Of a stretch of DNA of 64,000 nt, positions 5,021 to 59,335 are shown piece after piece. Numbering within the stretch: position 1 is the stretch's first letter; each line of letters begins with the position of its first letter. Origin of the DNA: Candidatus Ozemobacteraceae bacterium (GTDB taxonomy: Bacteria > Muiribacteriota > Ozemobacteria > Ozemobacterales > Ozemobacteraceae); assembly GCA_035373905.1 (NCBI GenBank), contig DAOSOK010000013.1, positions 51,579 to 115,578 on the forward strand. Direction: 5' to 3'. The notes beneath the pieces were generated by a model. It was not told the origin of the DNA. It was given only the letters and a program-made list of their open reading frames with translations, and searched no databases. The position numbers were made by a program, and so were the translations under genes.

Positions 5021-5039
5021 TAATTTCTCCTCGTGATGG

Positions 5040-5085: not shown

Positions 5086-5112
5086 TCCCGTATATCAGGA
5101 GTCATTGCTGTA

Positions 5113-5212: not shown

Positions 5213-5266
5213 CCAGAAACGAAATGGGTCATCCTCAACCACGAACCTTCTGTCGCAGAACCCGGT

Positions 5267-22087: not shown

Positions 22088-22287
22088 ATCCTCTCCTGAC
22101 ACTGATTTCACGCGTATTAGATCACAGCCGTCTGCGGACTGTCAATGTACGGGGAAGACCAAGGAACGTCTCACATTACTATTGCCGGAGCGTTGAGTCA
22201 ATCGATGCGTTCCGCCAAAAGCGTCATGCCTGATGTCGATACCGGCGTTGAACGGATACTCACTTCGGAGTATCATCGGATCACGCC

Positions 22288-30183: not shown

Positions 30184-30255
30184 CGTCGGTGACAGAAGTG
30201 ATTCATTCCGGTCTTTCATCGCTCCCCATCATGCAGGAAATACCGACAAAAAACA

Positions 30256-36704: not shown

Positions 36705-38372
<1,668 letters not shown>

Positions 38373-38835: not shown

Positions 38836-38883
38836 TCGTCCGTCATCTCACCCGCATAAGTATTATATAAGGAGATATTGATA

Positions 38884-41705: not shown

Positions 41706-41706
41706 T

Positions 41707-42378
41707 GTGGCAAGCATTCTTCCAGAAAGCGAGACGATCATGACAGCCGAAGTGAACAAGACACAGCAGGCCCCCGAGGCTGCGCCGTCGCCCGCTCCGG
41801 AACAGGCCGCGAGCGAAAACGCCGCGCAACCGGCCGCAGGCACCAACGCAACCCAGGCTGAAGCCCCCCAGGGCGAGACCCCGCAGGCCGAAGCGGCCCG
41901 GCCCGAGGATCCCCTCGAAACCCTCAAAAAGGAAGTCGACGGCATCAAGAAGGAACTGGCCGAAACGAAGAACCGGTATCATCGCGCCCTGGCTGATTAC
42001 GACAACCTCAAGCGCCGGACCGACCAGAAGCTGCTCGAGATGTCGGAATACGGCTCTGAGGCGTTCGTGAAGAAGCTTCTGCCCGTGCTCGACACGTTCG
42101 AGTCAGCCATGCGCCAGCTGACCGACGCGAAGGTCGAGGCCAAGATCATGGACGGCTTCGAGATGCTCTTCTTCCAGTTCAACGACGTGCTCGAAAAGGA
42201 AGGGCTCAAGCCGATCCCGGCGAAGGGGCAGAAGTTCGACCCGAACCTGCATGAAGCCATGTCGAAGAGCACCGATCCGAACCAGGACGACGAGGTCGTC
42301 CTGATGGAGTATGAAAAGGGCTACATGTTCAAGAAACGCGTCATGAGAACGGCGAAAGTCGTCATCAACCACAAATAA
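41707..42378 (+). CDS. grpE: nucleotide exchange factor GrpE
   Basis: RALADYDNLKRRTDQKLLE ... FDPNLHEAM ... GYMFKKRVMRTAKVVI. GTG 41707 or ATG 41740 are alternative starts. Confidence 0.85.
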   Translation: MASILPESETIMTAEVNKTQQAPEAAPSPAPEQAASENAAQPAAGTNATQAEAPQGETPQAEAARPEDPLETLKKEVDGIKKELAETKNRYHRALADYDNLKRRTDQKLLEMSEYGSEAFVKKLLPVLDTFESAMRQLTDAKVEAKIMDGFEMLFFQFNDVLEKEGLKPIPAKGQKFDPNLHEAMSKSTDPNQDDEVVLMEYEKGYMFKKRVMRTAKVVINHK

Positions 42379-42450
42379 CCGAGTTTATTATATCCTTTCA
42401 CATACAGCGCCGCGGCGAGGCCGCACGCAACCAGACAGGAGGAACAATAC

Positions 42451-44319
<1,869 letters not shown>

Positions 44320-44387
44320 GTTGACGACACGCGGGGCGGGCCGCCAGGGTCCGCTCCGCATGGCCGCCGCGATTCCAGGAGACACAG

Positions 44388-45503
44388 ATGGCCAAGCGTG
44401 ACTACTACGAGGTTCTCGGCGTCGCGAAAAACGCCGATGAGGCCGAACTGAAGCGGGCCTACCGCACCCTTGCCCGCAAATACCATCCCGACGTGAACCC
44501 GGCGAAAGAGGCCGCGGAACAGTTCAAGGAAATAAACGAGGCCTACCAGATCCTCAGCGATCCGAAGAAGCGCAGCGCCTACGACCAGTTCGGCCACCAG
44601 GGGCTCGAAGGGGCCGGCTTCAACCCAGCCGACTTCCAGGGGTTCGGAAATTTCGGCGATATATTTGGCGATATATTGTCAGACTTCTTCGGCGGCGCGA
44701 GTCACAAGGCCGGCCCCCGCCGCGGCGCCGACCTGCGATATGACCTCGAGATCACCTTCGAGGAGGCCGTGTTCGGCTGCGAGAAGAAGATCACGGTCCA
44801 GCGCTCGGCAAACTGCACCCAGTGCGGCGGCTCCGGCGCCCAGACCGGAAGCAGCCGGAAGGTTTGCCCGGTCTGCCGCGGCAAAGGCACGATCTCCCTC
44901 GCCCAGGGTTTCTTCTCGATCCAACGCACCTGTCACCAGTGCCAGGGCGAGGGTGAGATCATCGACAAGCCCTGCAATACCTGCCACGGCCAGCGTCGCG
45001 TCAAGCACAGCGAAAGCCTCGACGTGAAGATTCCGCCCGGCGTCGAGACGGGCAGCAAACTGAAGCTCACGGGCGAAGGCGAAGCCGGTGACAAGGGCGG
45101 TCCTCCGGGCAGCCTGTACATCGTCCTGACGGTCGGCAGGCACGAACTGTTCGAACGTGTCGGTGACGATATCGTCTGCGAGCGCAACATCAGCTTCCCA
45201 CTCGCGGCTCTCGGCGGGGAAGTCGATGTTCCGACCCTCCAGGGCCCGGTCAAGATCAAGATCCCGACCGGCACCCAGACCGGCAAGGTGTTCCGGCTCC
45301 GCGGCTACGGCGTGAAGTCACTCCAGGGCGGCCAGGGAGACCAGCTCGTGAAGATCTTCGTCCGCACACCGACCGATCTGAGCGAAAAGGCGAAAGACCT
45401 CCTCAAACAGCTCGCGGCCGAGGACGGCGACGCCGATTCCAAGCTCGGCGAGGGCGGCAAGTCCTTCTTCGACAAGGTGAAGCAGGCCCTCGGAGGCCAT
45501 TGA
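44388..45503 (+). CDS. dnaJ: co-chaperone DnaJ (type I, with four CxxCxGxG zinc-finger repeats)
   Basis: J-domain DYYEVLGV...HPD, G/F region, CTQCGGSG / CPVCRGKG / CHQCQGEG / CNTCHGQR. Confidence 0.95.
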
Positions 45504-45560: not shown

Positions 45561-45599
45561 CTGCATTCAAGGTGTTGTATAATGAAAGAGGAACGTTCA

Positions 45600-47075
45600 A
45601 TGTCGAATGGGGGGTTTGTCATGCGGTGCATCACTTTCGGCCTTTCGAGGCGCATTTTCAGGGTGATTCCCCACGCCCTCCTCCTGGCGGGTCTTCTTGC
45701 CCCCGCGTTCTGCGAGACTCCGGCGGCGAATGATGCGGTCCCGACCGTTTCCCAGGACTCCGGCAAGGCCGAGGACCTTCTGAAAAACCTCCATACGCTC
45801 TCGCGGATGAATCTCGAGCAGACCGAAACCATGCTCGAGATCTACCGGAAAAGCTTCGCCGCCGATTCGCGTTCCCCCGACACGCGCATCGTGTTATCGG
45901 CTCTCCTTCTTCGCAAGGCGAACCTTCTCAAGGCAGCCCCCTTCCCCGATGTCGAGGCATGCTTCATGGAAGCGGCAGACGTGATGCCCGATTCGTTCGA
46001 CGTTCAGTATCAATGGGGCCAGGCGCTGTTCGCCCGCGGAAATTTCGAGGCCGCCGTTCCGAAGCTGGAAGCCGCGGTCGCTCAGCGTCCCGAGCATCTC
46101 GACACGATCATGAAGCTCGGCATCTCGCAGCTGAAAATGATGAAATACGAGGAGGCACAGGCCCTCTTCGAGCGCGCCCAGAAACAGATCCCCAAGGATT
46201 ATCTCCTCCTGTATTTCCTCGGACGCTGCGCCTACGAACTGAAGGACTACGACAAGGCGGTCGAGTATTGGGAAGAGGCTCTCAAGCACATTCCCAACCA
46301 GGAGGAAGGCGCGGCGCTCCGCACCATGATCGGAAAAGCGCGCGAGCAGTCGGCCTCGATCGCGGGAACGACGACGGACGAGAACCAGCGGTTCGTGATC
46401 CATTACGCCGGCTCCTCCCAGAAGGATATCGGCGACGTGACGATGGAGGTCCTCGAGGACGTCTACGACCAGGTGACATCCGACCTGATGTATAAACCTG
46501 ACATTAAAATCAACGTCATCTTCTTCCTGACCGAGGAGTTCTACGAGATCAACAACTCCGGCCGCTGGGTCGGGGCCCTCGCCCAGGGCGAGAAGATCCT
46601 CGTTCCTCTTCAGCAGGGCTATTCCGACCTCCAGTCCGTGAAGGGCATTCTCGCCCACGAGTTCACGCACGTGATCGTGAACATGCGCACCAACAACCGG
46701 TGCCCGACCTGGGTCAACGAGGGGCTCGCGGTCTACGAGGAGTTCAAGTTCGCGAACGGCGATCCGACGGTGCTTCGCCCTGATTATGAGCGGCTGTTCC
46801 AGTCGAAGATCATCGGCGAGAAGCATTTCATCCCGCTCAAGGAGATCAATCTCAATCCCGCCCAGCAGACCTACGGCTACCAGATCGGCCTCGGGTATCT
46901 CCAGTCGTATCTCGCCATGAGGTTCCTGATCGAGCGCTGGGGCTGGCAGGCCGTCGATGCTCTTCTGAACTCAATCGGCAAAGGCGACTGGCTCGACGAC
47001 TCGTTGAACGAGGCGGCAGGCATGGAATTCTCCGAATTTCAGAAGGAACTGAACGACTGGATGCTGGGCCTCTGA
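45600..47075 (+). CDS. exported TPR-repeat protein with C-terminal Peptidase_MA-like (HExxH) domain
   Basis: Signal-like MRCITFGLSRRIFRVIPHALLLAGLLAPAFC. TPR-like helices through about residue 250. GILAHEFTHVIVNMRTNNRCPTWVNEGLAVYEE is HExxH plus a downstream Glu, as in the giant lipoprotein C-terminus. AGAGGA RBS before ATG 45600; an alternative start is at 45582. Confidence 0.6.
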   Translation: MSNGGFVMRCITFGLSRRIFRVIPHALLLAGLLAPAFCETPAANDAVPTVSQDSGKAEDLLKNLHTLSRMNLEQTETMLEIYRKSFAADSRSPDTRIVLSALLLRKANLLKAAPFPDVEACFMEAADVMPDSFDVQYQWGQALFARGNFEAAVPKLEAAVAQRPEHLDTIMKLGISQLKMMKYEEAQALFERAQKQIPKDYLLLYFLGRCAYELKDYDKAVEYWEEALKHIPNQEEGAALRTMIGKAREQSASIAGTTTDENQRFVIHYAGSSQKDIGDVTMEVLEDVYDQVTSDLMYKPDIKINVIFFLTEEFYEINNSGRWVGALAQGEKILVPLQQGYSDLQSVKGILAHEFTHVIVNMRTNNRCPTWVNEGLAVYEEFKFANGDPTVLRPDYERLFQSKIIGEKHFIPLKEINLNPAQQTYGYQIGLGYLQSYLAMRFLIERWGWQAVDALLNSIGKGDWLDDSLNEAAGMEFSEFQKELNDWMLGL

Positions 47076-47087
47076 TGCCCCTTTTCG

Positions 47088-47810
47088 ATGACCTCGACCA
47101 TCAACTTCTATGATGTTGCCGGCGCCATCGGAGTGGCTGCTTGGCTGTCGTATTCAACGTCGGGTTTCATTCGCAGTTCGGTGCCGCGGGAATCGGCTCT
47201 CGGGGCTTCGATATCTGCGCTCATCCTGGGTGTTCTCGGGGCCAGGCTTTTTTCAGGTTTCCTGGCTCTGGGCAGGCTGCCGACCCTGTCGGAGCTGCTG
47301 CATTTCGAGCGAGGCGGGTTCGCGTTTCACGGTTTCGTGCTGGGCGTCGTGATCGGAATTGCCGCAGCCGCCCAGGTGGTTCGCGCGAGGCTCCCCGAAC
47401 TGCTCGATGCTGCCGCTCCGGCGATGGCCCTGGCAACTGCCTGCTGGAGAACGGGCTGCTTTTTCAACGGCTGCTGCTGGGGAATCATCACCTATTCGCG
47501 ATTCGATCTTCCCCTTCCGGGCCATCACTCCCCTCCAACGATCGGCCTTCCCCTCCCTCTTTTCGAAGCATGCTTTCTCATCTCCGTTTTCCTGGCTCTG
47601 CATGCTCTGACGAAGCGTCAATTTCTCCCGAAAGGATGCATAGCAGCGCTCTATCTTTCATTCCACGCCGCATATCGGGTTGCAGCCGATGTCTGGCGCC
47701 CGGATTATTCGAACGTTTTCTATGGCATTTCCGTTTTTCTGTTGATATTCGGAGGTCTCTGGCTCCTCAAATTGCGAGGACAGGCACGGCTTAACAAACG
47801 CCAGCGCTAA
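47088..47810 (+). CDS. polytopic membrane protein, possible Lgt-like prolipoprotein diacylglyceryl transferase family
   Basis: Six or seven TM helices. The RTGCFFNGCCWG block resembles the Lgt signature region (G-N/C-F-x-N-G-x-x-x-G). Confidence 0.4.
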   Translation: MTSTINFYDVAGAIGVAAWLSYSTSGFIRSSVPRESALGASISALILGVLGARLFSGFLALGRLPTLSELLHFERGGFAFHGFVLGVVIGIAAAAQVVRARLPELLDAAAPAMALATACWRTGCFFNGCCWGIITYSRFDLPLPGHHSPPTIGLPLPLFEACFLISVFLALHALTKRQFLPKGCIAALYLSFHAAYRVAADVWRPDYSNVFYGISVFLLIFGGLWLLKLRGQARLNKRQR

Positions 47811-47952: not shown

Positions 47953-49602
47953 ATGAAGCAAATCGGTAGTTATCTGGTAGATGCAGCTCTCATCACGCAT
48001 GAGCAGTTGCAACGAGGGCTTGCTGTCAGCGAGAAGCAGAAGATCAGGCTCGGCGCAGCCCTCATCGACATGGGCTTCATAACCGAAGACGATCTTCAGA
48101 CGGCGCTGTCGAGTCAGTTCGGAATACCTAGAATCGACGCCGACGAACTGGTCGTCGATCCGACGGTTCTTCACGAGATTCCGGCCCAGCTTGCCCGACA
48201 ACTCAACGTGATTCCCCTGCACATCAAATCGGGGGCGCTCGTGGTCGCGACATCGGATCCTCTCAACATCAGCATTCTTGCTGACCTCGAAAGCAAGATC
48301 AAGCGGCGCATCGTGTTGGTCATAGCCTCCACCCACCAGATCAAACACGCCATTTCCCGCTACTACGCCGGTCGGGAGAGACTCGACGAGAGCATCAATC
48401 AGGTTCAGCTCATCGAAAACGAAACGTCAATCGACGAATTGGAAGCGGCCGATGCACAGATTCAAAGTGCCCCGATCGTGAAGTTCGTGAATCAGATCCT
48501 CCAGGGGGCGGTTAGAGAGCATGCTTCTGATATTCATGTCGAGCGCGACAATCTCGAGTTTCATATCCGGTATCGCATCGATGGCATGCTGAAAACGATG
48601 TTCCGACCCAAGCAGCATCTCCATCAGCTGATCGTATCGCGCATCAAGGTGATGGCACGACTTGACGTCAGCGAACATCGGATTCCCCAGGATGGTCGGA
48701 TCATGATGACGATGGATAACCAGCCAGTCGACTTTCGCGTGGCTATCTGTCCGTGCATTGACGGTGAGAATGCCGTCATCAGGGTTCTGAATCGTGACAA
48801 TCAAGCCATGGATCTCACCCATCTTGGTTTCAGCCCGGCCGGTCTGGAAAAACTTGAATCACTCATCTCGCGCAATTTCGGGTTGGTTCTCATTGCCGGA
48901 CAAACCGGCTCCGGAAAAACGACGACGCTGTATGCGATTCTGCAAAAGCTGAATGAAGAGCGGAAGAAGATCATCACCCTCGAAGATCCCGTTGAAAAGA
49001 GACTTCCGCTGCTCAATCAGATTCAGATCAATCCCAAAGTCGATCTCACGTTTGCAACCGGCCTTCGCTCCATCCTCCGAATGGATCCGGACATCATTCT
49101 CATCGGCGAGATCCGGGACGGCGAAACCGCCAATCTCGCGGTGAATGCCGCGATGACGGGCCACCTGGTCTTTTCGACGATTCACTGCGGCATCGCCGCC
49201 GAAGTGCCCGTGCGCCTGACCGAGATCGGCGTCGAACCGTATCTCGCCGCGAACGTCCTCCTCGGCACCATCGCCCAGCGTCTCGTACGCTTGAACTGCC
49301 CGAATTGTCTCGTCGAAGAAGAGCTGTCAGAGCAGATTCGCAAGCGCTTCGACCCCGACTTCCAGAGCTACCGGGGAAAAGGCTGCGCCGCGTGTGCCGG
49401 CATCGGATATCGCGGTCGGGGCTGTATCGAGGAAGTGATGCCGGTAACCGACGAGATCAGGAAATTGATGCTTGCCCGTGCGACAACCCGTCAACTCGAG
49501 GAACAGGCCGTCAAAAACGGAATGGTTCCGTTGCTGGAATCGGGCATTTCCAAAATTCGTCATAAGCAAACCAGCTTCATGGAGCTGGCCAGAGTCCTTT
49601 GA
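47953..49602 (+). CDS. gspE: GspE/PilB/MshE-family secretion-pilus assembly ATPase with MshEN-type N-terminal domain
   Basis: Walker A LIAGQTGSGKTTTL, Asp box, Walker B DPDIILIGEIRD, His box, and the tetracysteine motif CPNC...CAAC. The N-terminus carries RLGAALIDMGFITEDDLQTALSSQ. Confidence 0.9.
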   Translation: MKQIGSYLVDAALITHEQLQRGLAVSEKQKIRLGAALIDMGFITEDDLQTALSSQFGIPRIDADELVVDPTVLHEIPAQLARQLNVIPLHIKSGALVVATSDPLNISILADLESKIKRRIVLVIASTHQIKHAISRYYAGRERLDESINQVQLIENETSIDELEAADAQIQSAPIVKFVNQILQGAVREHASDIHVERDNLEFHIRYRIDGMLKTMFRPKQHLHQLIVSRIKVMARLDVSEHRIPQDGRIMMTMDNQPVDFRVAICPCIDGENAVIRVLNRDNQAMDLTHLGFSPAGLEKLESLISRNFGLVLIAGQTGSGKTTTLYAILQKLNEERKKIITLEDPVEKRLPLLNQIQINPKVDLTFATGLRSILRMDPDIILIGEIRDGETANLAVNAAMTGHLVFSTIHCGIAAEVPVRLTEIGVEPYLAANVLLGTIAQRLVRLNCPNCLVEEELSEQIRKRFDPDFQSYRGKGCAACAGIGYRGRGCIEEVMPVTDEIRKLMLARATTRQLEEQAVKNGMVPLLESGISKIRHKQTSFMELARVL

Positions 49603-49643: not shown

Positions 49644-50861
49644 ATGGCTATATACGAGTTTCAGGCAAAAGACAGCGAAGGCAAGACCGTCAGCGGAACA
49701 CTTACTTCGAGCGATGATTCCGCCGCCATGGCCGAACTCACGTCACGAGGGCTGTGGGTCGCCTCGCTTGTCGAAACGTCGAGCGCCACCTCCCTCAGTT
49801 CCGAGATTCGATTGTTCTCGTTCGTTTCCGCGGAAACGCTCAATACATTTCTTCTGCAACTTTCGATCATGATCAAGTGCGGCGTGAGCCTTGCCGAAGC
49901 CCTGCAATCGCTGGAACAAACCGAAACCAGCACGGTATTCAAGCAGGCGCTTTCGGACGTCAGGCTCGATGTGGCCGCCGGCAAATCATTTTCGGAAGCC
50001 CTTTCCCGGCATCCGGAAATCTTCGACAGATTCATGATTGCCATGGTCCGAATCGGTGAAACTGGTGGCGTTCTCGAAGAGGTTCTCGCCAAACTGGCAT
50101 CGACGAGCAAGCGTCGCCTTTCCCTGAGAAACCAGATCCTGGGATCGCTTGCCTATCCCATGCTCCTTCTCTGCGTCGCGACGCTGGTCGTCACGGTCCT
50201 GGTCGTTTTCGCCGTCCCCAAGTTCGCCGTATTGTTCGAGTCCGCGAAAGTCGAGCTTCCCGTCACGACCAGGGCCCTTATCGCCGGAAGCAAGCTGATC
50301 GAGGAACACATCAGATTGGTCGGCGGGCTGTTCGCCGCCGCCGTCGTCGGCGGCATTCTGACGCTGTTCAATTCGACCGTTCAATGTCACCTCGGGGAAG
50401 CAGCCATGCTTCTCCCCGTTCTGAGGCAGGTCGTGCAGAAATACCATGTGGTGTTGATTTCCGAGCCGCTTTCCATGCTGCTTGCCGCCGGAGTTCCGTT
50501 GCGCGAACTTCTGATAGCAATCGAGAACACGATCGAGATGACGACCCCCAAATCAGTCGTGATCAAGATGCGTGAGCACATCGAACGGGGAGCAAGCCTC
50601 CAGCAAGCGCTCGAACAAAATCCGATCTTTCCTCCGATGGCCGTCAAGCTCGTGGAGACCGGCGAACGCACCGGAGCTCTCGACAAAATGTTCAAGGAAA
50701 TCGCCGAGTTCTATGACGATCAGCTGCAGACAGCCATGAAATCGGCTCTCAGCCTTCTCGAACCGCTCTTGATCCTCGGCGTTGCCGTCATCGTCGGTTT
50801 CATCATGCTATCCGTCTTCGTGCCCATCTACCAGATGAGCTTCATGATCAAAAAGGCCTGA
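49644..50861 (+). CDS. gspF: GspF/PilC-family inner-membrane platform protein
   Basis: Two T2SSF repeats and three TM regions. C-terminal ...LEPLLILGVAVIVGFIMLSVFVPIYQM. Confidence 0.9.
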   Translation: MAIYEFQAKDSEGKTVSGTLTSSDDSAAMAELTSRGLWVASLVETSSATSLSSEIRLFSFVSAETLNTFLLQLSIMIKCGVSLAEALQSLEQTETSTVFKQALSDVRLDVAAGKSFSEALSRHPEIFDRFMIAMVRIGETGGVLEEVLAKLASTSKRRLSLRNQILGSLAYPMLLLCVATLVVTVLVVFAVPKFAVLFESAKVELPVTTRALIAGSKLIEEHIRLVGGLFAAAVVGGILTLFNSTVQCHLGEAAMLLPVLRQVVQKYHVVLISEPLSMLLAAGVPLRELLIAIENTIEMTTPKSVVIKMREHIERGASLQQALEQNPIFPPMAVKLVETGERTGALDKMFKEIAEFYDDQLQTAMKSALSLLEPLLILGVAVIVGFIMLSVFVPIYQMSFMIKKA

Positions 50862-50862
50862 T

Positions 50863-51387
50863 ATGAAGCGAACCGGGCCTTCAGGCTTTTCCCTATGGGA
50901 GCTTCTGCTCACCTGTGCCGTTGCGATCGTTGCGGCTCCCCTCGTCCTACCGCTCTTCTTCGTGGATTCGCATGCGGCATCAGACGAAACCGCCAGTCGG
51001 ATCATCCTCGGAGCCATACAGCAAACACGCAGTGCCGGCCTTGCAGGCAGGGTCGTCGGAGGGCGAATTTCGTTTACCAGCGCGACGTCGACGTTTACGA
51101 TGCAGTCCGACCAGCAGGCTCTTCCGTCCGGTTATGTGATCAAATCGATATCTCTCGACGGCACTCAGATTTCGGCCATAGAGGCCGGGTTCGATCCGCT
51201 CGGAAACATCTCTTTCACCCCATACGGGAACCAAGCGGTCCTGACGCTCGCAAGAGCCGACGGCACAGAAATCCGGACGATCACCCTCGAAGGCAAAGGA
51301 ATCCCAATTCCGCAACCGACTGCCGGAACTGCCGAAACCGGCGGTTCTTCGGGCGGCGGCGGCGGACGAGGGTGCAGATGGTTGTGA
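50863..51387 (+). CDS. pseudopilin (class III signal, E+5)
   Basis: MKRTGPSG|FSLWELLLTCAVAIVA. Confidence 0.65.
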   Translation: MKRTGPSGFSLWELLLTCAVAIVAAPLVLPLFFVDSHAASDETASRIILGAIQQTRSAGLAGRVVGGRISFTSATSTFTMQSDQQALPSGYVIKSISLDGTQISAIEAGFDPLGNISFTPYGNQAVLTLARADGTEIRTITLEGKGIPIPQPTAGTAETGGSSGGGGGRGCRWL

Positions 51388-51815
51388 AATCATTTTCCAG
51401 AGGGTTTTCTCTTGCCGAGATCCTCGTGGCGATCCCCTTAGTCGCGGTGATCTCCATGAGCCTCGCCTACTTCGGTTCAATCTACTCGTTTTCCAATTCT
51501 CAGACCATCGGCAGGTTCCGCTGTCAGATCGCCGTTCACAATCTCCTGACGCTGGTCCAGGCGGCAAGCGATACCGCCGCCCTGACCGTCGTGAGCCGCC
51601 ATATTCAGGGGGGCGGCACCGCAGGCCCGCTTCTGACCTCATCACCCGCCCATCCTGACGGCTCCTCGGCACTCACGGTGTCTTCGAGCGTTTCCTCAGT
51701 GACCGGATACGGCATGACGTTCGGCGGATCTCCCGCCATGCCGTTTCATGTCGCCGTAACCGATGAGACAACCGGAGCGCGCTCTGAAATCATCACCTAT
51801 GTCACAACCCACTGA
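51378..51815 (+). CDS. pseudopilin (class III signal, E+5)
   Basis: MVVKSFSRG|FSLAEILVAIPLVAVI. Overlaps the previous gene by 10 nt. The track ORF 50895..51815 is a spurious N-terminal extension in this frame. Confidence 0.6.
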   Translation: MVVKSFSRGFSLAEILVAIPLVAVISMSLAYFGSIYSFSNSQTIGRFRCQIAVHNLLTLVQAASDTAALTVVSRHIQGGGTAGPLLTSSPAHPDGSSALTVSSSVSSVTGYGMTFGGSPAMPFHVAVTDETTGARSEIITYVTTH

Positions 51816-51819
51816 TGTC

Positions 51820-52227
51820 ATGAACAAACGATATGCACGCATAGGATTCACGTTGATGGAGCTCCTTTCCGTCATCGCCCTTTCCACCATTTTTGCCGGG
51901 ATATCTCTCGGCCCCCTCATGATGCAGTTTTCGCTCGTTTTCGAAAGCAACGCACGCGTCGCCGAAGTCAATCGTCTGATGGAAGCGGCTCTTCTCGTTT
52001 CGCGCACAATCACCCAGAGTCGTGCCTTTGCATCGAGTTTCGCCTTCACCGGAGACGAGAATCTCACCTGGACCGATGAGACGGGCCAGGTCCATACCAT
52101 CCTCGAACAGGTGACGGGCTCGATAACGACCGATGCATCGAATGACCAAACCGTCGTCATACGCCTCGAAGGCAAGAGAATTCCCGGCGGAGCGACCGTC
52201 CGCATGCTTGCCTATCCGTTGAGATGA
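51820..52227 (+). CDS. pseudopilin (class III signal, E+5)
   Basis: MNKRYARIG|FTLMELLSVIALSTIFA. Upstream in-frame ATGs at 51763 and 51799 are also possible. Confidence 0.6.
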   Translation: MNKRYARIGFTLMELLSVIALSTIFAGISLGPLMMQFSLVFESNARVAEVNRLMEAALLVSRTITQSRAFASSFAFTGDENLTWTDETGQVHTILEQVTGSITTDASNDQTVVIRLEGKRIPGGATVRMLAYPLR

Positions 52228-52253: not shown

Positions 52254-54233
52254 ATGAGAGAACGAACACCTTCGATATCGTGCAACCGAGGATACATTCT
52301 TGCCGCAATCCTGTTTCTCATTCTCGTTTCAGCGTCGATAGCGCCGCTTCTGCTGCATGACGCGCAAACCATTCCGAAACGCCCCCAGACATTCGAAGAG
52401 ATGTTTCGCATCCATTGGGCGCTCGAAGGGGCAAATCAGTGGCAGTTGCACGAAGCGAACATAAACGTCGTCGAACCCTTCTGCGGCTTCGTGAACTCCG
52501 TTGCGACATTTTCCTATCCTGATGGTTTCAAGGTTCGCGTCGATCTTCTCGAAGGTCGAACGATGCTTGCCAGAAACAGATTTCTCAAGGCTTCTGCCAA
52601 GGCATATCACGGGAATGTCGCCGCCGATTATGATTTCAGCCGGTTGTCATCCGCGCCTGCGGCCATTCCCGGCGTGACCGCAGGGGGTGCTCACAGTTTC
52701 GGCTGGAAAGCGAACGGCTCTCTCCTTGCCTGGGGACTGAATACGAATGGCCGGCTTGGCACGAACGACACCGCCCAGCGCGCGACCCCGACTCCTGTGA
52801 ACAAGGGCGATTGTTTGGACGTCGGAACCGATTTCAGCCAGGGGTGGAACGTCGCGGCGGGTGGAGACCACAGCCTCGTGCTCGACATGCACGGAAATGC
52901 GTGGGCGTTCGGAAACAACGCCTACGGGCAGCTTGGCTCCGGGAACACCACGGCGTATTATGCTCCGCATGCCGTCACGAACGGGTCCGACCACCTTTCA
53001 AACGTGAGCGACATCGCCGCCGGCACCTCGTTCAGTCTCGCGATCATCCGTCCGAACGGTAATGTTCTAGCCTGGGGACTGAATTCGAATGGACAACTGG
53101 GCAACACATATCCGAAACCCTGGCTAGGAACCCCCTCGAATTCCTCCGTTCCGGTGACCGTTCGAACCTCGCAAAGCAGCATCATCGGGATCGTCGGCAT
53201 TGCCGCGGGTCGTGAACACGCTCTGGCGATCGATAAAACAGGCCATATTTACGCTTGGGGGAACAACGCCAACGGTCAGATCGGATTTGACGCGGGTAAC
53301 TACTCGCCTTTTGCCGTTACGGTCAATAGCGGCGAAATATCCGAGATCGCTTCTTCTCCTTTCACGACCACCGCAAGGACGAATCCCGGAACGACGCAGG
53401 TCTATATCCCGTCGAGATTCGGCATATCCAGCATAACGGTGGAACTGAACGTCGCGATACCGTGGAATTTGTGGGGCGTTTCTTCGTATGCGAAATTTCA
53501 GCATCTGAGCATTTCCACCTACTCCGTCAACGTCATCTTCAGTTCATACACGAATCCATCGTCAAACCGGTATATTTGGAAATTCGATCAGATCGAGTCG
53601 GAGACGACATACGAATTTCAATATCCGGGAACATACACCCTGACGGTTCAAGCGCCGAGTTCCTGGCTCAGCACCTCGGCATCGAACGCGAATGGAAAAT
53701 GGTTCTACACCTCTTCCCCCGCCAAGATCGGCGTTCATACGCTGCGCGGCTATCCCAAACTTCCGACGGCTTACATCGGCGTTGCTGCCGGAGATTATCA
53801 CTCGATCGCCGTCGCAAGCGAATCGAACACGACGTCGCTTCTGGCATGGGGGCTGAATTCGAGCGGGCAACTCGGACTCGGCGATACCGTTTCTCGCGAT
53901 CGCCCGGTTCCCGTTCCAAACTGTTCGAACGTCCGACGGGTCGTTTGCGGTGCCTACCATACCCTCGCGTTGAAGAATGACGGAACGGTCTGGGCATGGG
54001 GAGACAATTCGTACGGACAGCTCGGGATCGGCTCGACGGTGTCCAAATCCGTCCCGACGCGAATTACGTCTCTCACCGACATCGTCGGAATCGCGGCCGG
54101 CTCGTATCATTCCCTCGCGATTTCCGCGAATGGAACCGTGTATTCATGGGGCCGCGGCGACAACGGCAGACTCGGAACCGGCGCCGTCAGCGGCAATCAA
54201 ACTTCACCGGCGATCGTTACGGGTTTTCCGTAA
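52254..54233 (+). CDS. GspK/PilX-like N-terminal pseudopilin segment (no E+5) fused to a seven-bladed RCC1-repeat beta-propeller
   Basis: MRERTPSISCNRG|YILAAILFLILVSASIAPLL. There are seven RCC1-type blades: WGLNTNGRLGTND, FGNNAYGQLGSGNT, WGLNSNGQLGNT, WGNNANGQIGF, WGLNSSGQLGLGDT, WGDNSYGQLGIGST, WGRGDNGRLGTG. Confidence 0.75.
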   Translation: MRERTPSISCNRGYILAAILFLILVSASIAPLLLHDAQTIPKRPQTFEEMFRIHWALEGANQWQLHEANINVVEPFCGFVNSVATFSYPDGFKVRVDLLEGRTMLARNRFLKASAKAYHGNVAADYDFSRLSSAPAAIPGVTAGGAHSFGWKANGSLLAWGLNTNGRLGTNDTAQRATPTPVNKGDCLDVGTDFSQGWNVAAGGDHSLVLDMHGNAWAFGNNAYGQLGSGNTTAYYAPHAVTNGSDHLSNVSDIAAGTSFSLAIIRPNGNVLAWGLNSNGQLGNTYPKPWLGTPSNSSVPVTVRTSQSSIIGIVGIAAGREHALAIDKTGHIYAWGNNANGQIGFDAGNYSPFAVTVNSGEISEIASSPFTTTARTNPGTTQVYIPSRFGISSITVELNVAIPWNLWGVSSYAKFQHLSISTYSVNVIFSSYTNPSSNRYIWKFDQIESETTYEFQYPGTYTLTVQAPSSWLSTSASNANGKWFYTSSPAKIGVHTLRGYPKLPTAYIGVAAGDYHSIAVASESNTTSLLAWGLNSSGQLGLGDTVSRDRPVPVPNCSNVRRVVCGAYHTLALKNDGTVWAWGDNSYGQLGIGSTVSKSVPTRITSLTDIVGIAAGSYHSLAISANGTVYSWGRGDNGRLGTGAVSGNQTSPAIVTGFP

Positions 54234-54338: not shown

Positions 54339-55820
54339 ATGATGACCGCTCGCACGTATCAGAAACCGGGCTTTGTCGAAATCGAATCATCCTATGCCCG
54401 GCTTGTCCGTCACGAAACCCAGGGATGGGCATGCAAGACCATCCCGCTGGTAGGCGATTCCCCCTGGCCGCTCCTCAAAACCGAGATGCAATCGTTTTTT
54501 CCCGGCGGATCGCAGCTGGTGTTCGTTTTTCAGGAGCGATGCGGAATACGGATGTTTCATTTCCCATCGACCTTGTCACCAACCGAAATTCTTGGAAATC
54601 TCCGCCTTCGGCGAGATGAATACTTCGGTTCTCGAGAAGAGTATCTGCTTTCCCTTCGGATGGGCAATCCGGTCGACGGCAAGAATCGGGAAGTCTATGT
54701 CACGTTCGTTCCCCGATCCCTGAGTGACTCAGCCCAGGAACTCTGCGCCAGCCTGGGCTATTCCCTCCAACGCATCGTAACCGGCTTCGATGCGCTGCTC
54801 GGAGCCACGGCCCGCCAGCTCGGCCGCAACAACCCCGAAACCGTCGTCATCGCGAGTCTCGGATATTCGCAGGTGAATCTGGCTGCATGGCGCGGCGGAG
54901 AACTCATCATGGTCCGGTCGCTCCTTACCGGTTCCATCAAAGAACTCGAAAACGCCGTGTTCTCCGCATTTTCGATCACCCCGCCCGATCTCATGAGAAT
55001 CCTGTCGGAATCGCTGGAAGTCCCCCCGGCCGTCAAGAATTCGATCGCCGATAACCGACAGGAGATCATGACGCACATCGGAACGCTTTTCGCCGAACTT
55101 CGAGGCCGAAAGCTCCTCTCCGAGAACCCGACCCTGTTCCTTTGCCAGCCGGTCGTCGCGGAGCCTCAACTTGCGTCCATGTTGTCCGAAAGATTCTCGG
55201 CACGAGTCATCGAGCTGAACGGCATCATGCAAGATGAAACGGCCGTCGGCGAGGATTTTCCCAGGTGGAGCTGGCTCTTGGGCGGCGTCATGCCGGCGGC
55301 CATCAACGTGCTTCCCCCGCGCACCCGGAGGGAACGTCTTCTGGCGGCATCTCCCCGGCTCGCCTTTTTCGCCATGATCGTGATGTGCATCGCCCCGTTC
55401 ATTCTCATGAGATCGTTGAAATCAAATATCGCCCTGGAAAACGCTCTGCTCATCGAACAGAATCAGGCTTTCAACCAGATCGTCGAACTCAATCGGTCCA
55501 ACCAGGAGTTGTATGCCGGTGTCGAGACGATAGCCAGCGGAGTAACCGCCGACATTTCCCGGCGCGGCCAGACAACCACGCTCATTCGATATCTTTCCGA
55601 AAGCCTGCCCGCCTTAACACGGCTCGAAAAGCTGGAAATATTGAACAAAGAAGGCAAAGTGACCATTTCCGGGAAATCCGTGGACACGGAATCCTCTCTT
55701 CGGTATCTCGATGCCGTGAAAGCGTCACCGTTCCTCGAAAAGGTGGAAATCTCCTTCGACTCGCCGGGCGGAACGACCGTTTCCTTCTCCATCACCGGTC
55801 TGCTCACCAAGAAGGGATGA
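54339..55820 (+). CDS. PilM-like (actin-fold) domain fused to PilN-like domain
   Basis: The 330-aa N-terminal cytoplasmic domain has divergent PilM-like organisation. Then INVLPPRTRRER (PilN INLLPxR motif), TM LAFFAMIVMCIAPFILM, and a periplasmic coiled-coil/beta domain. Confidence 0.5.
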   Translation: MMTARTYQKPGFVEIESSYARLVRHETQGWACKTIPLVGDSPWPLLKTEMQSFFPGGSQLVFVFQERCGIRMFHFPSTLSPTEILGNLRLRRDEYFGSREEYLLSLRMGNPVDGKNREVYVTFVPRSLSDSAQELCASLGYSLQRIVTGFDALLGATARQLGRNNPETVVIASLGYSQVNLAAWRGGELIMVRSLLTGSIKELENAVFSAFSITPPDLMRILSESLEVPPAVKNSIADNRQEIMTHIGTLFAELRGRKLLSENPTLFLCQPVVAEPQLASMLSERFSARVIELNGIMQDETAVGEDFPRWSWLLGGVMPAAINVLPPRTRRERLLAASPRLAFFAMIVMCIAPFILMRSLKSNIALENALLIEQNQAFNQIVELNRSNQELYAGVETIASGVTADISRRGQTTTLIRYLSESLPALTRLEKLEILNKEGKVTISGKSVDTESSLRYLDAVKASPFLEKVEISFDSPGGTTVSFSITGLLTKKG

Positions 55821-55827: not shown

Positions 55828-56373
55828 ATGTTTGAGCGAATATTGCGGTATCTGGTCATCATCGGGCTTTTGTTCCTGCCGTGGCGCTATTCTCTGCTCG
55901 CGGAACTTTCACAGCTCAAGGCAGGCCGTCAGCAAAACGTCGATACGACCGCCACGATACGCCATCTCGCGGACGGACGCGGCGAGGTCATGAAAAAAGC
56001 CCTCGAACTGCAACGCCAGCAACTCAAGGCACGGCAGAGGGCGCTTTCCTTCATTCTCCCCCCGTTTTCCCAAGCCCGCGCGAACCTCATGGCGTCATTC
56101 GATACGGTGCGTTCGCAAATTCCCGGCGAATGGGAAGTCGTTCCCGAGGGGAAGTTCCATTCGGAAGGAATGCATGTCGTCTGGCCGTTCCGGTTCAAAT
56201 ATATCGGCACCTATGCGAATGCGGTCAAGGCGCTCGCCGCGATGGAGACGGCCCCCCAGTTGCTGCGCCTCACCAGGACGACCGTGACCGGGGCCGGAAG
56301 CAGCGTCATCGTCGAAGGGAACGTCGAGATGGTGTATCTTGATGACACCGCGTCAGGGGGGGTGAGCCTGTGA
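55828..56373 (+). CDS. PilO-like bitopic protein
   Basis: N-terminal TM ILRYLVIIGLLFLPW, then a coiled coil, then an alpha/beta domain. Position after PilN and 4-nt overlap with the next gene. Confidence 0.45.
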   Translation: MFERILRYLVIIGLLFLPWRYSLLAELSQLKAGRQQNVDTTATIRHLADGRGEVMKKALELQRQQLKARQRALSFILPPFSQARANLMASFDTVRSQIPGEWEVVPEGKFHSEGMHVVWPFRFKYIGTYANAVKALAAMETAPQLLRLTRTTVTGAGSSVIVEGNVEMVYLDDTASGGVSL

Positions 56374-56777
56374 ACGACACGCTGAAATTCGCCGTCGTGG
56401 CTTCGACGGTATCCCTGGTTCTGTTCGGATTGAATGTCTACCACATCCTCTTCGGGAACCTCACTCCCCGCATGAGCGATATCGCCAACATCCAGATCGC
56501 CTTCGTCCAGACCATCGTCTCCCCGTCCGCGTCGAAGTTGATCGAGTCTCTCCACGAAACGCTGAAACCGTTCACTCCCTTCTTTTACGAGAACATGAAG
56601 CTGTACGGCATGCGCCGTTCCGGAAACGCCGAATGGACCGCGCTGTTCGCGGGAGAGTCGGAAAACGTCATCGCGCTGAAACCGGGCTCCTCATACGAGG
56701 GGGTCACGGTCGTCAGAACGGATGAACGATCCTGTCATGTGACATACGGCACCGTCGAACGCGATTTTTCCTTATAA
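56370..56777 (+). CDS. PilP-like small periplasmic protein
   Basis: N-terminal TM/signal FAVVASTVSLVLFGL, C-terminal beta-rich ...ALKPGSSYEGVTVVRTDERSCHVTY, directly upstream of the secretin. Confidence 0.4.
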   Translation: MNDTLKFAVVASTVSLVLFGLNVYHILFGNLTPRMSDIANIQIAFVQTIVSPSASKLIESLHETLKPFTPFFYENMKLYGMRRSGNAEWTALFAGESENVIALKPGSSYEGVTVVRTDERSCHVTYGTVERDFSL

Positions 56778-56821: not shown

Positions 56822-58747
56822 ATGAACCGGTTCAAACCAAGCAGGATCGTGTCGGCCACCGCCGTCGGTTGTCTGTTGCTGGCCTCCAGCCATCTGTTGA
56901 AGGCCGCATCCGGGAATGATTCTCAAAAACCAGAAACGCCGCCGGCGCTTTCCGCTCTCACGTCCGCTCAGAAACAGGCCGTCCCGTCGGGCTCCCTCTC
57001 GATGGTCATTCGCGGGATGCCGACCGAGCAGGCGCTGGAGCAGGTTGCAGCGAATTTCGGTCTTCAACTCCAGCCGCAGGTCGAATTGCCCGGGGCCGTC
57101 AACCTCGAGTTCGACGGCGCCGGCCTCGACCAGGCAATGAGCGAGATCGTCGGTCCGCTGAACCTCGACTGGATGGTTGAAAACGGCCGTCTGCACGTCT
57201 TTCAACCCCGCCAGCCCTGGACGCACGTGAGCGACGCCGCGAACGGCGCCCCGTCCATGGCGGCCATTCCGCTCGTGAAGCCGGAAGAGCCTGTCTCGAG
57301 CCGCATCGTCGTCCTGAAAAAGCGAAAGGCCGAAGACATTCAGAAGCTCATCAAGGATCTGAGCACCGGCATGAACATCGTCACCGACGCGCCTACGAAC
57401 TCCCTCATCTGTCTGGGCACCGAGAAGCAACTCGCCGAAGCGGAGCAGCTCGCGAAGAGTCTCGACGAACTGCCTCCTTCCGCCCAGGGAGTCGCCTCCT
57501 CCCCGCTCGTGGCGAAAGTCGAGTTCATCACCGAGATCTTCAAACTCGACCATGTCGACTTCGACAGTCTCGAGAAAGAGCTGACGTCGGTGATTGCCCG
57601 CGAAACCTCAGGAACGGGGAGCTCAAATCAGCAAGCGGCGCTGACAAAAGACGGCAAGCCGATCGAGAAAGAGTATTTTCTCCTCGATCGGGAACGGCGC
57701 ATCGTTCTCATCCATTCAACGCTGGAAAAAATTGCCAGTCTCAAAACCTATTTCACAACGATCAACCAGCCGCTCGCTCAGGTCATGATCGAAGCCCAGA
57801 TCGTCGCGGTCGACACCGACTTCGAGAAGAACATGGGCATCAAATGGAACACCTCCGTCGGGTATACCGGCCCCGCCAATGCCTGGAGCACGGGGAAATT
57901 CGATCCCGTTCAACTTCCGCCCGCGAACTCCGTTCAATCACCGAACGCGGATACCTACCAGTCCTTCCAGTTCGGCAAGTGGAGCCTGAACAACCTCCAG
58001 GCACTTCTCGACACTGCCCAATCCCAGAACAAGGCGCAGGTTCTCTCGAGGCCGAAGATCATGTCGGTCACCGGGAAGAAGGCGAAGATCCAGATCGGCA
58101 CGAAGATTCCCTACACCACCTCGACGACGCTCACCGACGGCGGGAATACAACCGAAAACGTGAATTTCGTCGACGTCGGCATCATTCTCGACGTCACGCC
58201 CATGATCCACACCGACAATCACACGGTTCGCATGACGGTGAAGCCCGAGGTTTCCGATGCGATCGCCTACGCGAAGAACGGCGCCCCGATCATCGCGACA
58301 CGCCAGACGGAAGCCACCGTCGAGGTGAGGAACGGGGAAACGATGGTCATCGGCGGCCTCCTGACCAGCGAAAACGGCAAATCAACGACCGGTGTGCCGC
58401 TGCTCCGAGACGTTCCCGTTCTCGGCGAATTCTTCAAGTTTTCCAAGAGAACCAACAAGAAGACGAATCTCATGATTCTCATCACCACCCGCATCGTCGA
58501 TACCGAATTCGAAGGCACCCTTTCACCCAGGCTCGCGACATCGATCAGCATGATGCACGGCAATCCCGCGGTCATCGCCTCTTCACCGATCGCAAGCCTC
58601 ACGCTCCCCCTGAGCTTGAAGTCTGAAGGGTCGTCCAAACAGGCCCCATCCGAAAAGAAAGCCCCCATCGTGAAAGATCATCGGCTTTCCAACGTCGCCA
58701 AGGAATCAACCGCCCCCGCAGGAAACGAAAAAAAGCCCCAGCGATAG
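56822..58747 (+). CDS. secretin (GspD/PilQ family outer-membrane channel)
   Basis: Signal peptide, N0/N1-type domains, and the secretin C-domain ...AQVLSRPKIMSVTGKKAKIQIGTKIPY ... GETMVIGGLLTSENGKSTTGVPLLRDVPVLGEFFKFSKRTNKKTNLMILITTRIV. Confidence 0.9.
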   Translation: MNRFKPSRIVSATAVGCLLLASSHLLKAASGNDSQKPETPPALSALTSAQKQAVPSGSLSMVIRGMPTEQALEQVAANFGLQLQPQVELPGAVNLEFDGAGLDQAMSEIVGPLNLDWMVENGRLHVFQPRQPWTHVSDAANGAPSMAAIPLVKPEEPVSSRIVVLKKRKAEDIQKLIKDLSTGMNIVTDAPTNSLICLGTEKQLAEAEQLAKSLDELPPSAQGVASSPLVAKVEFITEIFKLDHVDFDSLEKELTSVIARETSGTGSSNQQAALTKDGKPIEKEYFLLDRERRIVLIHSTLEKIASLKTYFTTINQPLAQVMIEAQIVAVDTDFEKNMGIKWNTSVGYTGPANAWSTGKFDPVQLPPANSVQSPNADTYQSFQFGKWSLNNLQALLDTAQSQNKAQVLSRPKIMSVTGKKAKIQIGTKIPYTTSTTLTDGGNTTENVNFVDVGIILDVTPMIHTDNHTVRMTVKPEVSDAIAYAKNGAPIIATRQTEATVEVRNGETMVIGGLLTSENGKSTTGVPLLRDVPVLGEFFKFSKRTNKKTNLMILITTRIVDTEFEGTLSPRLATSISMMHGNPAVIASSPIASLTLPLSLKSEGSSKQAPSEKKAPIVKDHRLSNVAKESTAPAGNEKKPQR

Positions 58748-58882: not shown

Positions 58883-59335
58883 ATGATCCGTTCAAATCGT
58901 GGTTTTACCCTCATGGAACTCCTTCTCGTCATTGCCATTCTGGCAATCGTCGCCGCCGCCGCTGCCCCAAGTTTCTTCGGCGGCGCGACTGATGCGATGA
59001 AAGAAGCTCGGCGGGCTGCTTTCGTCTCTAATTTCAATAGCGTTCTTTCTGCCGCTAATATTTACCTTGCCAACGAGCAGGCAGCCGGAAGAGCAGGTGT
59101 AAAAGCTGGTACAGTTGTCTATTCGGCTCTTAAAGATAAAATGATTTCTGCACAAACGTTCAATGTGAAAAATTCTGCAGGAACGGTTGGCACCATTACA
59201 GCTCAAATCGTTCAGGCTGATGCCACCCTCAATACCTTCAAAGTATCTATGCATCAGTGCAAAGATAATGCCGGTACAGTTACCGGTAATGAAATTACCG
59301 ATCCGGGAGTTACTTTCGATACATTCACTCCGTGA
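58883..59335 (+). CDS. type IV pilin / major pseudopilin
   Basis: MIRSNRG|FTLMELLLVIAILAIVAAAAAPSFFG has E+5. 150 aa, with C-terminal Cys pair C...C (MHQCKDNAG...). Confidence 0.8.
   Translation: MIRSNRGFTLMELLLVIAILAIVAAAAAPSFFGGATDAMKEARRAAFVSNFNSVLSAANIYLANEQAAGRAGVKAGTVVYSALKDKMISAQTFNVKNSAGTVGTITAQIVQADATLNTFKVSMHQCKDNAGTVTGNEITDPGVTFDTFTP

Follow-up and report, generated by a model that had tools for sequence, protein, structure and literature searches.

A seven-bladed RCC1 propeller on a probable cap-type minor pilin lacking Glu5 in a secretin-containing type IV filament locus

The stretch of DNA analyzed here (the window, 64,000 nucleotides) carries on its + strand the genes of a type IV filament machine, and all the features given below are on this strand. 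The set begins with an assembly ATPase of the PilB/GspE type (47953..49602), with an N-terminal MshEN domain (Pfam MshEN and T2SSE on the identical public gene), whose NCBIfam match is slightly better as PilB (3.1e-159) than as GspE (1.8e-152), neither reaching the equivalog cut-off. It is followed by a platform protein of the PilC/GspF type (49644..50861; NCBIfam GspF 1.1e-85, PilC 1.5e-70), by three minor pilins and by the gene under study, which codes for a protein with RCC1 repeats. Next comes a 493-aa assembly protein (54339..55820), likely a GspL-like fusion of PilM and PilN; this assignment is mostly positional, with a weak Pfam PilN match at residues 417-472 (E 0.0013, below the cut-off) and no match among PDB sequences, and both size and position are kept in all long loci. 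A 181-aa protein in the PilO/GspM position (55828..56373) and a 135-aa protein in the PilP position (56370..56777) are placed by conserved position only, with no Pfam or NCBIfam match, and precede the outer-membrane secretin (56822..58747; Pfam Secretin 8.9e-47, Secretin_N 5.9e-10). The major pilin (150 aa, 58883..59335) starts with G↓FTLME, the arrow marking the predicted cleavage position, and is recognized by Pfam N_methyl (1e-8), TIGR02532 (1.8e-8) and PDB pilin matches; TIGR01710 aligns with its first ~40 residues only (27 bits, cut-off 88.85), and a match to Myxococcus PilA is longer but weak (6.6e-7). Of the parts of the window that were scanned, none contained a prepilin peptidase gene.

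The three genes upstream of the RCC1 protein all have G↓F(S/T)LxE prepilin motifs, and G↓FxLxE is present in all four other pilins of the locus. Minor pilin 1 (174 aa, 50863..51387) begins with G↓FSLWE, as read directly at its N terminus, and has a Gly/Ser-rich tail and then a conserved C-terminal GCRW[FL]; its family profile matches type IV pilins of the PDB through α1N (E 4.9e-8) and the α1N of Escherichia coli GspH in hhalign (E 7.7e-6). Minor pilin 2 (145 aa, 51378..51815), identified by TIGR02532 and alignment, begins with G↓FSLAE and has an invariant Cys in α1C (KCQ[VI]A), a TIGR02532 prepilin domain (E 0.0019, 17.9 bits, cut-off 16.3) and an hhalign match to the α1N of GspI (E 3.2e-5). 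Minor pilin 3 (135 aa, 51820..52227, start codon read) begins with G↓FTLME and is matched by Pfam N_methyl (8.2e-4) and TIGR02532 (16.4 bits, cut-off 16.3), its family profile matching PDB pilins with an E of 1.6e-7. The PDB matches of all three profiles run through α1N only, and the hhalign alignments of the family profiles with GspH, I, J, and K of E. coli K-12 are restricted to the same segment; therefore, the assignment of H, I, J, and K identities goes no further than gene order and Glu5 status.

The open reading frame of the RCC1 protein spans 52224/52254-54233, with a likely start codon at the ATG in 52254, preceded by GGAG 8 nt upstream. The same product, of 659 aa, is obtained in public gene calls and is 100% identical to a protein of a 'Candidatus Ozemobacteraceae' MAG. 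Combining the ORF, the profile matches, and an AlphaFold2 (AF2) model, the protein (52254..54233, stop codon included) is described as a probable modular cap-type minor pilin, as argued below, with an RCC1 propeller. A leader peptide of residues 1-13 (52254..52292) is followed by a pilin module of residues 14-125 (52293..52628), comprising a hydrophobic α1N without Glu5 and with an invariant Pro at +18, an amphipathic α1C, and a three-stranded antiparallel sheet. RCC1 blades 1-4 (residues 136-365, 52659..53348) are separated from blades 5-7 (residues 506-659, 53769..54230; Pfam RCC1 stretches, motifs at residues 532, 582, and 632) by an all-β insert of ~140 aa seen in the AF2 model (residues 366-505, 53349..53768), which belongs to no Pfam or NCBIfam family. 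The initial annotation placed this protein directly after three minor pseudopilins and ascribed to it roughly 600 aa containing seven RCC1-type blades. The placement and the blade count (seven Pfam stretches, seven motifs) are borne out, and the three upstream genes all carry Glu5 motifs; the undivided stretch of blades resolves instead into a pilin-like module of ~110 aa, the propeller, and the non-RCC1 insert.

The N terminus reads MRERTPSISCNRG and then YILAAILFLILVSASIAPLLL (NRG↓YILAAILFLILVSASIAPLLL), that is, a basic leader, a Gly, and ~21 hydrophobic residues, with Ala rather than Glu at +5. This corresponds to the class III signal-peptide layout, in which a short basic leader ending in Gly is followed by ~20 hydrophobic residues. 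Of the 16 family members, 15 keep the Gly that ends the leader, where the prepilin peptidase is predicted to cut, in register with GspK RG↓V; Leu at +3 and Pro at +18 are invariant, and +5 is Ala, Pro, or Ile across the family. The α1N segment also aligns in register, although weakly, with RG↓VALLIVL of E. coli GspK, and the hhalign comparison of the N-terminal family with E. coli K-12 GspK covers α1N only (36 columns, E 0.003, probability 10%). On the other hand, neither the full-length protein (N_methyl, T2SSK, gspK, PilX_N) nor the isolated N-terminal module (N_methyl PF07963, TIGR02532, T2SSK, PilX_N, even at E<=10) is matched in Pfam and NCBIfam, and the family profile retrieves from the PDB sequences only a chance GPCR match (E 1.2). 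The absence of Glu at +5 reported in the initial annotation is confirmed by direct reading, and the proposed likeness to GspK/PilX stands for the Gly at -1, the missing Glu5, and the weak GspK alignment, and fails for membership in the profile families. In the AF2 model, obtained from only 16 sequences, a continuous helix (residues 11-70) packs on a three-stranded sheet with a pLDDT of 78; Foldseek against the PDB gives no significant match (best E 0.7), and the α-domain typical of GspK is absent, three consecutive strands being found instead. According to this model, the pilin part would be a minimal core of GspI size.

The propeller itself is recognized by Pfam RCC1 (248.8 bits, cut-off 21.7, seven stretches) and WD40_RLD (296.3 bits, cut-off 150), and seven motifs of the WGxNxxGQLG type are present. 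All seven repeats are above the Pfam gathering scores (RCC1/RCC1_2/RLD), and this part of the protein constitutes an RCC1-like domain with a closed seven-bladed propeller fold, and in Pfam only RCC1-type families match it, with none of the PilY1-type propeller families. The insert between blades 4 and 5 is modeled as a β-sandwich with ~10 strands (pLDDT ~50-83), and it is far bigger and Cys-rich in the distant members P0128-P0130. Mean identity across the family is 56% in the globular pilin part, the most conserved region, ~50% in the blades, and 29% in the insert, the most variable one. This distribution is in keeping with a docking part that is conserved and an exposed part that diversifies, and the insert is a candidate specificity determinant.

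The same gene order (ATPase, platform, three pilins, RCC1 protein, PilMN-like protein, two small genes, secretin, and major pilin) is found in the window and in four related loci (L001, L004, L013, and L014), whose RCC1 proteins are 39-47% identical to the one described here. A PilT-like ATPase, of PilT size, is adjacent to the machine genes in L001 only, where it comes after them. The four-gene cassette of three Glu5 pilins and the RCC1 protein recurs at eight or more related loci, not all of which have machinery genes beside it: L005 and L006 have it with neither assembly nor secretin genes adjacent, and L017, on a short contig, has it with an N-terminal module only ~23% identical. By direct reading, the RCC1 gene lacking Glu5 stands fourth after three Glu5-bearing pilins in the window, L001, L004, L005, and L006, and L013, L014, and L017 share this layout. 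Searching 1.84 billion representative proteins with the profile of the N-terminal module (E <= 0.001) retrieved 14 clusters, 10 of them full length with RCC1 repeats, two short N-terminal fragments, and two misfits, P0131, where HAD-hydrolase sequence follows the module, and P0132, an unrelated autotransporter. In L016, two stand-alone RCC1-pilin paralogues lie side by side in divergent orientation. The initial annotation had asked whether related genomes would carry the same fusion or would disconnect the RCC1 protein from pilus loci; the fusion after three pilins recurs even where the adjacent assembly and secretin genes are missing, in orthologues down to 23-42% identity.

Taken together, these data indicate that the RCC1 protein is probably a modular, Glu5-less cap minor pilin of a four-pilin priming complex in a secretin-containing type IV filament machine, with its propeller displayed at the tip. 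In the best reading, it holds the cap position that belongs to GspK in type II secretion and to PilX/PilK in type IVa pili. Lack of Glu5 is an expected trait of a cap subunit, a known exception among pilins. Filament growth starts at the tip, formed by the H-I-J-K complex, and proceeds toward the base. The hydrophobic α1N would insert the protein into the inner membrane, the prepilin peptidase would remove the 13-residue leader after Gly13, and the small pilin module would then bundle with the three Glu5 minor pilins with which it is coinherited. The subunit lacking Glu5 would end at the very tip because, with this direction of growth, nothing lies above the top subunit to form the salt bridge. 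Finally, the seven-bladed propeller and its variable insert would pass through the secretin and be exposed at the tip as a ligand-binding head, the most likely role of the propeller. The role of PilX and that of PilY1 as a propeller adhesin, which are separate in type IVa pili, would be merged in one polypeptide. The interpretation given in the initial annotation is supported, with the propeller as a candidate adhesin. A bolder extension, which we advance only tentatively, is that the cap pilin without Glu5 and the PilY1-like propeller adhesin are one polypeptide in diderms of the Riflebacteria type, forming a distinct secretin-dependent tip architecture in which the hypervariable insert would be the receptor-binding determinant and stand-alone paralogues such as those of L016 would be swappable tips.

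The locus could also be read as a T2SS-like machine, whose short pseudopilus would stay in the envelope and whose cap pseudopilin would use the propeller in the periplasm or in the secretin vestibule, either as a head that docks substrates or as the face of a piston, rather than as an external adhesin. T2SS-like traits are found in the layout, E-F-(H-I-J-K-like)-(L-like PilM/N fusion)-(M-like) and no separate PilY1, in the best score of the platform protein as GspF, and in the lack of a PilT gene adjoining the locus within the window; contact with substrate is also reported for the H-I-J-K complex of T2SS (PMC10191384). However, the major pilin is not GspG-like, as reflected in its TIGR01710 score and its longer PilA match, and the order PilMN-O-P-secretin is that of the type IVa pilMNOPQ operon. 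The ATPase has a slightly better score with the PilB model, in L001 an ATPase of PilT size comes after the locus, and the one characterized RCC1-bearing minor pilin works in cell-cell binding. This reading is considered unlikely.

Less probable still is a bitopic protein of the inner membrane whose N-terminal signal anchor stays uncleaved and in which the periplasmic propeller would be an accessory or alignment factor, contacting for example peptidoglycan or the secretin, and would never be part of the filament. A plain anchor has no use for the near-invariant Gly that directly precedes the hydrophobic segment, this segment is modeled as the start of a long helix lying on a sheet, a hallmark of pilins, and coinheritance in L005 and L006 links the gene to the three minor pilins rather than to the secretin or the PilMNOP genes. 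The features that suggest an anchor are the absence of Glu5, of any prepilin profile match, and of Foldseek support for a pilin fold, together with the fact that PilX2 of TM7x is likewise devoid of a predicted PilD site; nonetheless, a cap subunit is expected to lack Glu5. As for a plain RCC1 protein, secreted through Sec or exposed at the surface, that happens to lie beside the pilus genes, we regard it as very improbable. Many bacterial RCC1 proteins are extracellular, and most of the best 120 RCC1 homologues have ordinary signal peptides or lipoprotein signals along with other surface domains such as SLH, Big, and fn3. But the hydrophobic stretch of ~21 residues is long for a Sec h-region, the alignment of 16 family members reveals no conserved small-x-small signal-peptidase-I site downstream of it, and the conserved Gly is at the start of the segment and not at its end. 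Moreover, the N-terminal ~125 residues are a conserved family of their own, tied to RCC1 repeats and to the position after three pilins in at least eight loci. An ordinary Sec signal, which the initial annotation had named as one of the observations that would overturn its reading, was consequently rejected.

With the cap minor pilin as the preferred reading, the RCC1 protein is a good new example and not a new principle, because the pilin-RCC1 design was recently described in other bacteria. The principle of modular pilins, by which a binding domain is grafted on a pilin and presented by the filament, extends here to the cap subunit without Glu5 of a machine that has a secretin and belongs to an uncultured phylum (Riflebacteria-type host), and searches based on the canonical N-methylation motif overlook such proteins. 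As a natural fusion of PilX/GspK-like and PilY1-like roles, it could aid the modeling of large tip cargo crossing secretins, and the small, sharply bounded family (14 representative clusters, in which the pilin module is conserved and the insert varies) is tractable for structure prediction of the tip complex. Its practical impact is limited since the organisms are uncultured and the idea has a precedent backed by experiments.

Among the known systems, the tip complex capped by a subunit without Glu5 (PMC10191384) is the reference for GspK, PilX, and PilK, which share with the RCC1 protein the fourth place after three Glu5 minor pilins, the Gly at -1, the lack of Glu5, and the bulk expected of a cap subunit. 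In GspK the additional domain is an α-domain inserted in the pilin sheet, whereas here an RCC1 propeller follows the pilin core at the C terminus. Membership in the GspK family was rejected, as there is neither a T2SSK/gspK match nor an α-domain, and so was membership in the PilX family, since the N-terminal module has no Pfam match even at E<=10. PilY1/PilC would resemble the protein proposed here in placing a large β-propeller at the pilus tip on a minor-pilin complex, as a modular carrier of adhesion. However, PilY1 is not a pilin, docks noncovalently, and bears a propeller of a separate family (IPR008707), whereas in our case the propeller is covalently fused to a pilin; with only RCC1-type matches and a pilin-like N terminus of its own, the protein was not assigned to PilY1/PilC.

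Bulky nonpilin domains on tip minor pilins that capture ligands are also known from Thermus ComZ (β-solenoid) and ETEC CofB (β-repeat and β-sandwich) (PMC8179133), although the appended folds and the systems, a competence pilus and a type IVb pilus, respectively, are different from those described here. The modular pilins of Raynaud et al. (PNAS 2021, PMC8179133), such as PilB (vWA) and PilC (lectin) of S. sanguinis, are alike in having a small N-terminal pilin module and a C-terminal functional domain that is not pili-specific and is predicted to be tip exposed, and their Dataset S1 lists four pilin-RCC1 (IPR012902-RCC1) architectures, with one protein each. These proteins were gathered via the IPR012902 N-methylation motif and bear Glu5, whereas the RCC1-pilin family is devoid of the motif, so that a search keyed to IPR012902 would miss it, and occupies the Glu5-less cap position; the protein falls within the definition of a modular pilin without the IPR012902 match that the paper used to collect them.

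A close counterpart is PilX2 from the T4P-2 locus of TM7x (Nanosynbacter lyticus, Saccharibacteria), a minor pilin whose lollipop pilin part is followed at the C terminus by a seven-bladed RCC1 propeller (ISME J 2025;19:wraf119, PMC12206443; preprint PMC11623550). It is the largest pilin of its locus, has a noncanonical signal peptide with no predicted PilD site, and is the proposed tip adhesin; when it is deleted, host binding drops by half but filaments still form (PMC12206443, PMC11623550). Together with the architectures of Dataset S1, PilX2 softens the statement in the initial annotation that RCC1 propellers are not a normal pilus component. By its published description, PilX2 has in common with our protein a pilin-like part, a seven-bladed RCC1 propeller, and a noncanonical signal peptide. 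Nonetheless, its host is a monoderm-like ultrasmall episymbiont without a secretin, whereas here the propeller, which unlike that of PilX2 accommodates a β insert of ~140 aa, would have to pass an outer-membrane secretin to reach the tip.

The open reading frame at 52254-54233 (+) encodes the RCC1 protein, of 659 aa, which is 100% identical to an NCBI protein from a 'Candidatus Ozemobacteraceae' metagenome-assembled genome (MAG), the host genome being itself metagenome assembled and of the Riflebacteria type. Public gene calls begin at the ATG at 52254, which is preceded by a GGAG at a distance of 8 nt; an alternative in-frame ATG lies 5' of it, at 52224. The strongest evidence for a pilus cap comes from the genomic context. 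The gene is preceded by those of a PilB/GspE-type ATPase (47953), a PilC/GspF platform protein (49644), and three small pilins with the motifs G/FSLWE (50863-51387, +), G/FSLAE (51378), and G/FTLME (51820), the slash marking the predicted end of the leader. It is followed by the genes of a 493-aa protein that weakly matches PilN (54339), two small proteins (55828 and 56370), a secretin (56822), and the major pilin (G/FTLME, 58883). Identical gene order surrounds orthologues of 39-47% identity at related loci L001/L002/L003, L004, L013, and L014; the related loci derive from Ozemobacteraceae and Riflebacteria MAGs. With the RCC1 gene behind three Glu5 pilins in the orthologous loci, the link to pilus loci proposed in the initial annotation is borne out in related genomes. 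In L005 and L006, where no machinery genes adjoin the cassette, three Glu5-bearing pilin genes still stand directly 5' of the RCC1 gene, and the short contig L017 also holds the cassette, its member being merely ~23% identical in the N-terminal module. Because it is kept in these three loci, the conserved unit is the cassette of three Glu5 pilins and one Glu5-less RCC1 protein, a layout that, by analogy, corresponds to that of the H-I-J-K tip complex.

Minor pilin 1 has a Gly/Ser-rich tail and then a C-terminal GCRW[FL], also found in L001 (8644-9195) and L004 (8648-9199); in L006 (153-707) it ends in RCSF, and the motif is absent in L005. Minor pilin 2 carries one invariant Cys in alpha1C (KCQ[VI]A), and a disulfide between subunits of the tip complex is conceivable. 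The L013 locus (SABV01000125.1), with the whole cassette and the machinery genes, belongs to a MAG labelled 'Erysipelotrichia bacterium', a surprising label given that the family otherwise occurs in Riflebacteria-type MAGs with secretin loci, and mis-binning is possible. In L016, two pilin-RCC1 paralogues of 835 and 845 aa are neighbours in divergent orientation (31-2538, -, and 2980-5517, +), and no minor pilin genes adjoin them. Directly 5' of the pilus locus, the window encodes a TPR and Peptidase_MA protein (45582-47075, +) and a prolipoprotein diacylglyceryl transferase (LGT) homologue (47088-47810, +); an LGT homologue borders the L001 locus too.

The alignment of the N-terminus of the RCC1 protein, MRERTPSISCNRG/YILAAILFLILVSASIAPLLL, covers 16 family members: a word-indexed search supplied 7, and an exhaustive HMM search against 1.84 billion representatives the other 9. 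The class III-type segment without Glu5 described at first holds across the family: a basic leader is followed by a Gly kept in 15 of the 16 members, Leu+3 and Pro+18 are invariant, and Glu never occurs at +5 (0/16). The observation of an RCC1 protein with a pilin-like N-terminus is confirmed in its ORF, N-terminus, and neighbours. Residues 14 to ~125 form a distinct conserved module, which had been overlooked. For this module alone (pLDDT 78.4, 16 sequences), AF2 predicts a single helix from 11 to 70, kinked near 40, and then three long antiparallel strands, giving moderate support to a pilin 'lollipop'. Autotransporter anchors of a helix plus hairpin score 6-6.5. A Foldseek search with the model gave no significant match. 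When compared with E. coli K-12 GspK by hhalign, the leader and alpha1N alone align (E 0.003, probability 10%), in the register RG/VALLIVL (GspK) and RG/YILAAIL (RCC1 protein). An unrelated Sec-secreted protein could likewise begin with a hydrophobic stretch; the alignment holds no conserved small-x-small signal-peptidase-I site after it, the residues there being [ST]-E-[TS]-like, and this origin is extremely improbable. An uncleaved, membrane-anchored accessory protein is a more credible possibility, none of the prepilin, GspK, and PilX sequence profiles matching the module; set beside the retained leader-end Gly, it is still improbable.

The type of machine bears on the remaining alternative. 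The T2SS-like traits are a platform protein whose best score is as GspF, a putative PilM-N fusion similar to GspL/PulL, and the lack of a separate PilY1. On the T4aP side, the ATPase scores slightly higher as PilB, and the PilMN-O-P-secretin order is that of pilMNOPQ. The major pilin, which is unlike GspG, shows a weak resemblance to Myxococcus PilA, and an ATPase of PilT size lies 3' of the L001 locus. Because of this mixture, a pseudopilus cap acting in secretion is kept as the main rival, albeit an unlikely one. A second type IV filament pair is encoded in the window by a T2SSF-type platform protein (18475-20004, -, 7.6e-24) and a 691-aa T2SSE-type ATPase (20036-22111, -, 5.7e-54), which indicates more than one machine of this kind in the host genome.

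In the propeller, RCC1 motifs 4 and 5 are separated by a 200-residue gap, within which lies a ~140-aa all-beta insert (aa ~366-505, 53349-53768, +). This beta-sandwich between blades 4 and 5, also overlooked in the initial annotation, has no family match in Pfam or NCBIfam and is the most variable region of the family, with a mean identity of 29%. Mean identity is 56% in the globular portion of the pilin module (aa 39-135), about 50% in the RCC1 blades, and 40% in the leader with alpha1N (aa 1-38), values that we take to reflect a docking part that is conserved and an exposed part that diversifies. In distant members (740-926 aa), the insert is much larger and Cys-rich, reaching several hundred residues in P0128-P0130. 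As a pilus cap, the RCC1 protein would be inserted into the membrane by alpha1N, lose its leader to the prepilin peptidase after Gly13, and bundle with the three upstream minor pilins, where the lack of Glu5 would place it at the very top. Then, the filament tip would display the propeller and its variable insert as a binding head. Of this scheme, the analysis shows the N-terminal motif, the predicted fold of the module, the co-inheritance with the three pilins, and the RCC1 fold, from which cleavage, incorporation, tip placement, and binding are inferred.

Searched against 1.84 billion proteins, the profile of the N-terminal module retrieves just 14 representative clusters (E <= 0.001). Ten are full-length members, all with RCC1 repeats, two are short N-terminal fragments (P0121 and P0127), and in P0131 the module precedes HAD-hydrolase sequence; P0132 looks spurious, being an unrelated autotransporter. 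In the set of the 120 best RCC1 homologues, almost every other protein carries an ordinary signal peptide or a lipoprotein signal. P0119, an unrelated metagenomic protein from a short contig (L015:809-3733, 974 aa), has a PilX-like N-terminus without Glu5 (KG/FALPTILIASVIML), then tandem RCC1 propellers, and also a Cys-rich region. This protein is possibly an independent fusion, a hint that pilin-RCC1 fusions arose more than once.

Elsewhere in the window, tandem Cpn60/GroEL paralogues (36705-38372, +, 2.2e-78; 38878-40509, +, 9.1e-80) are directly followed by HrcA, GrpE, DnaK, and DnaJ (40590-45503) in a compact chaperone island. An 856-aa vault-protein-like gene, here in a bacterial MAG, occupies 61335-63905 (+; Pfam MVP_shoulder 7.7e-31, Vault_3 repeat 1.4e-7), and 26290-30219 (-) encodes a surface-type protein of 1309 aa whose domains include Big_5, CarboxypepD_reg, fn3, and PKD-like ones.

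The best explanation is that the RCC1 protein would work like a GspK/PilX cap having taken over the role of PilY1. Membership of these families is rejected: the protein matches no T2SSK, PilX_N, or PilY1-type profile, the alpha-domain of GspK is absent, and the propeller is RCC1-type, whereas PilY1 has its own type. The protein fits the modular pilin class defined by Raynaud et al. 2021 (PMC8179133), whose Dataset S1 lists four IPR012902-RCC1 architectures, one protein each. Its closest described counterpart, judged from the published description, is PilX2 of Saccharibacteria, a minor pilin that combines a hepta-bladed RCC1 propeller with a non-canonical signal peptide; its deletion leaves the filaments in place but reduces binding to the host by half (PMC12206443, PMC11623550). 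The pilus cap with an RCC1 head in the initial annotation is supported, whereas its supposed unusualness is not, being preceded by these listings and by PilX2. Compared with the known pilin-RCC1 proteins, however, the pilin module here escapes the standard prepilin profiles, the propeller carries an insert, the machine is diderm and secretin-dependent, and the RCC1 protein is explicitly the fourth, putative cap, member of an H-I-J-K-like cassette.
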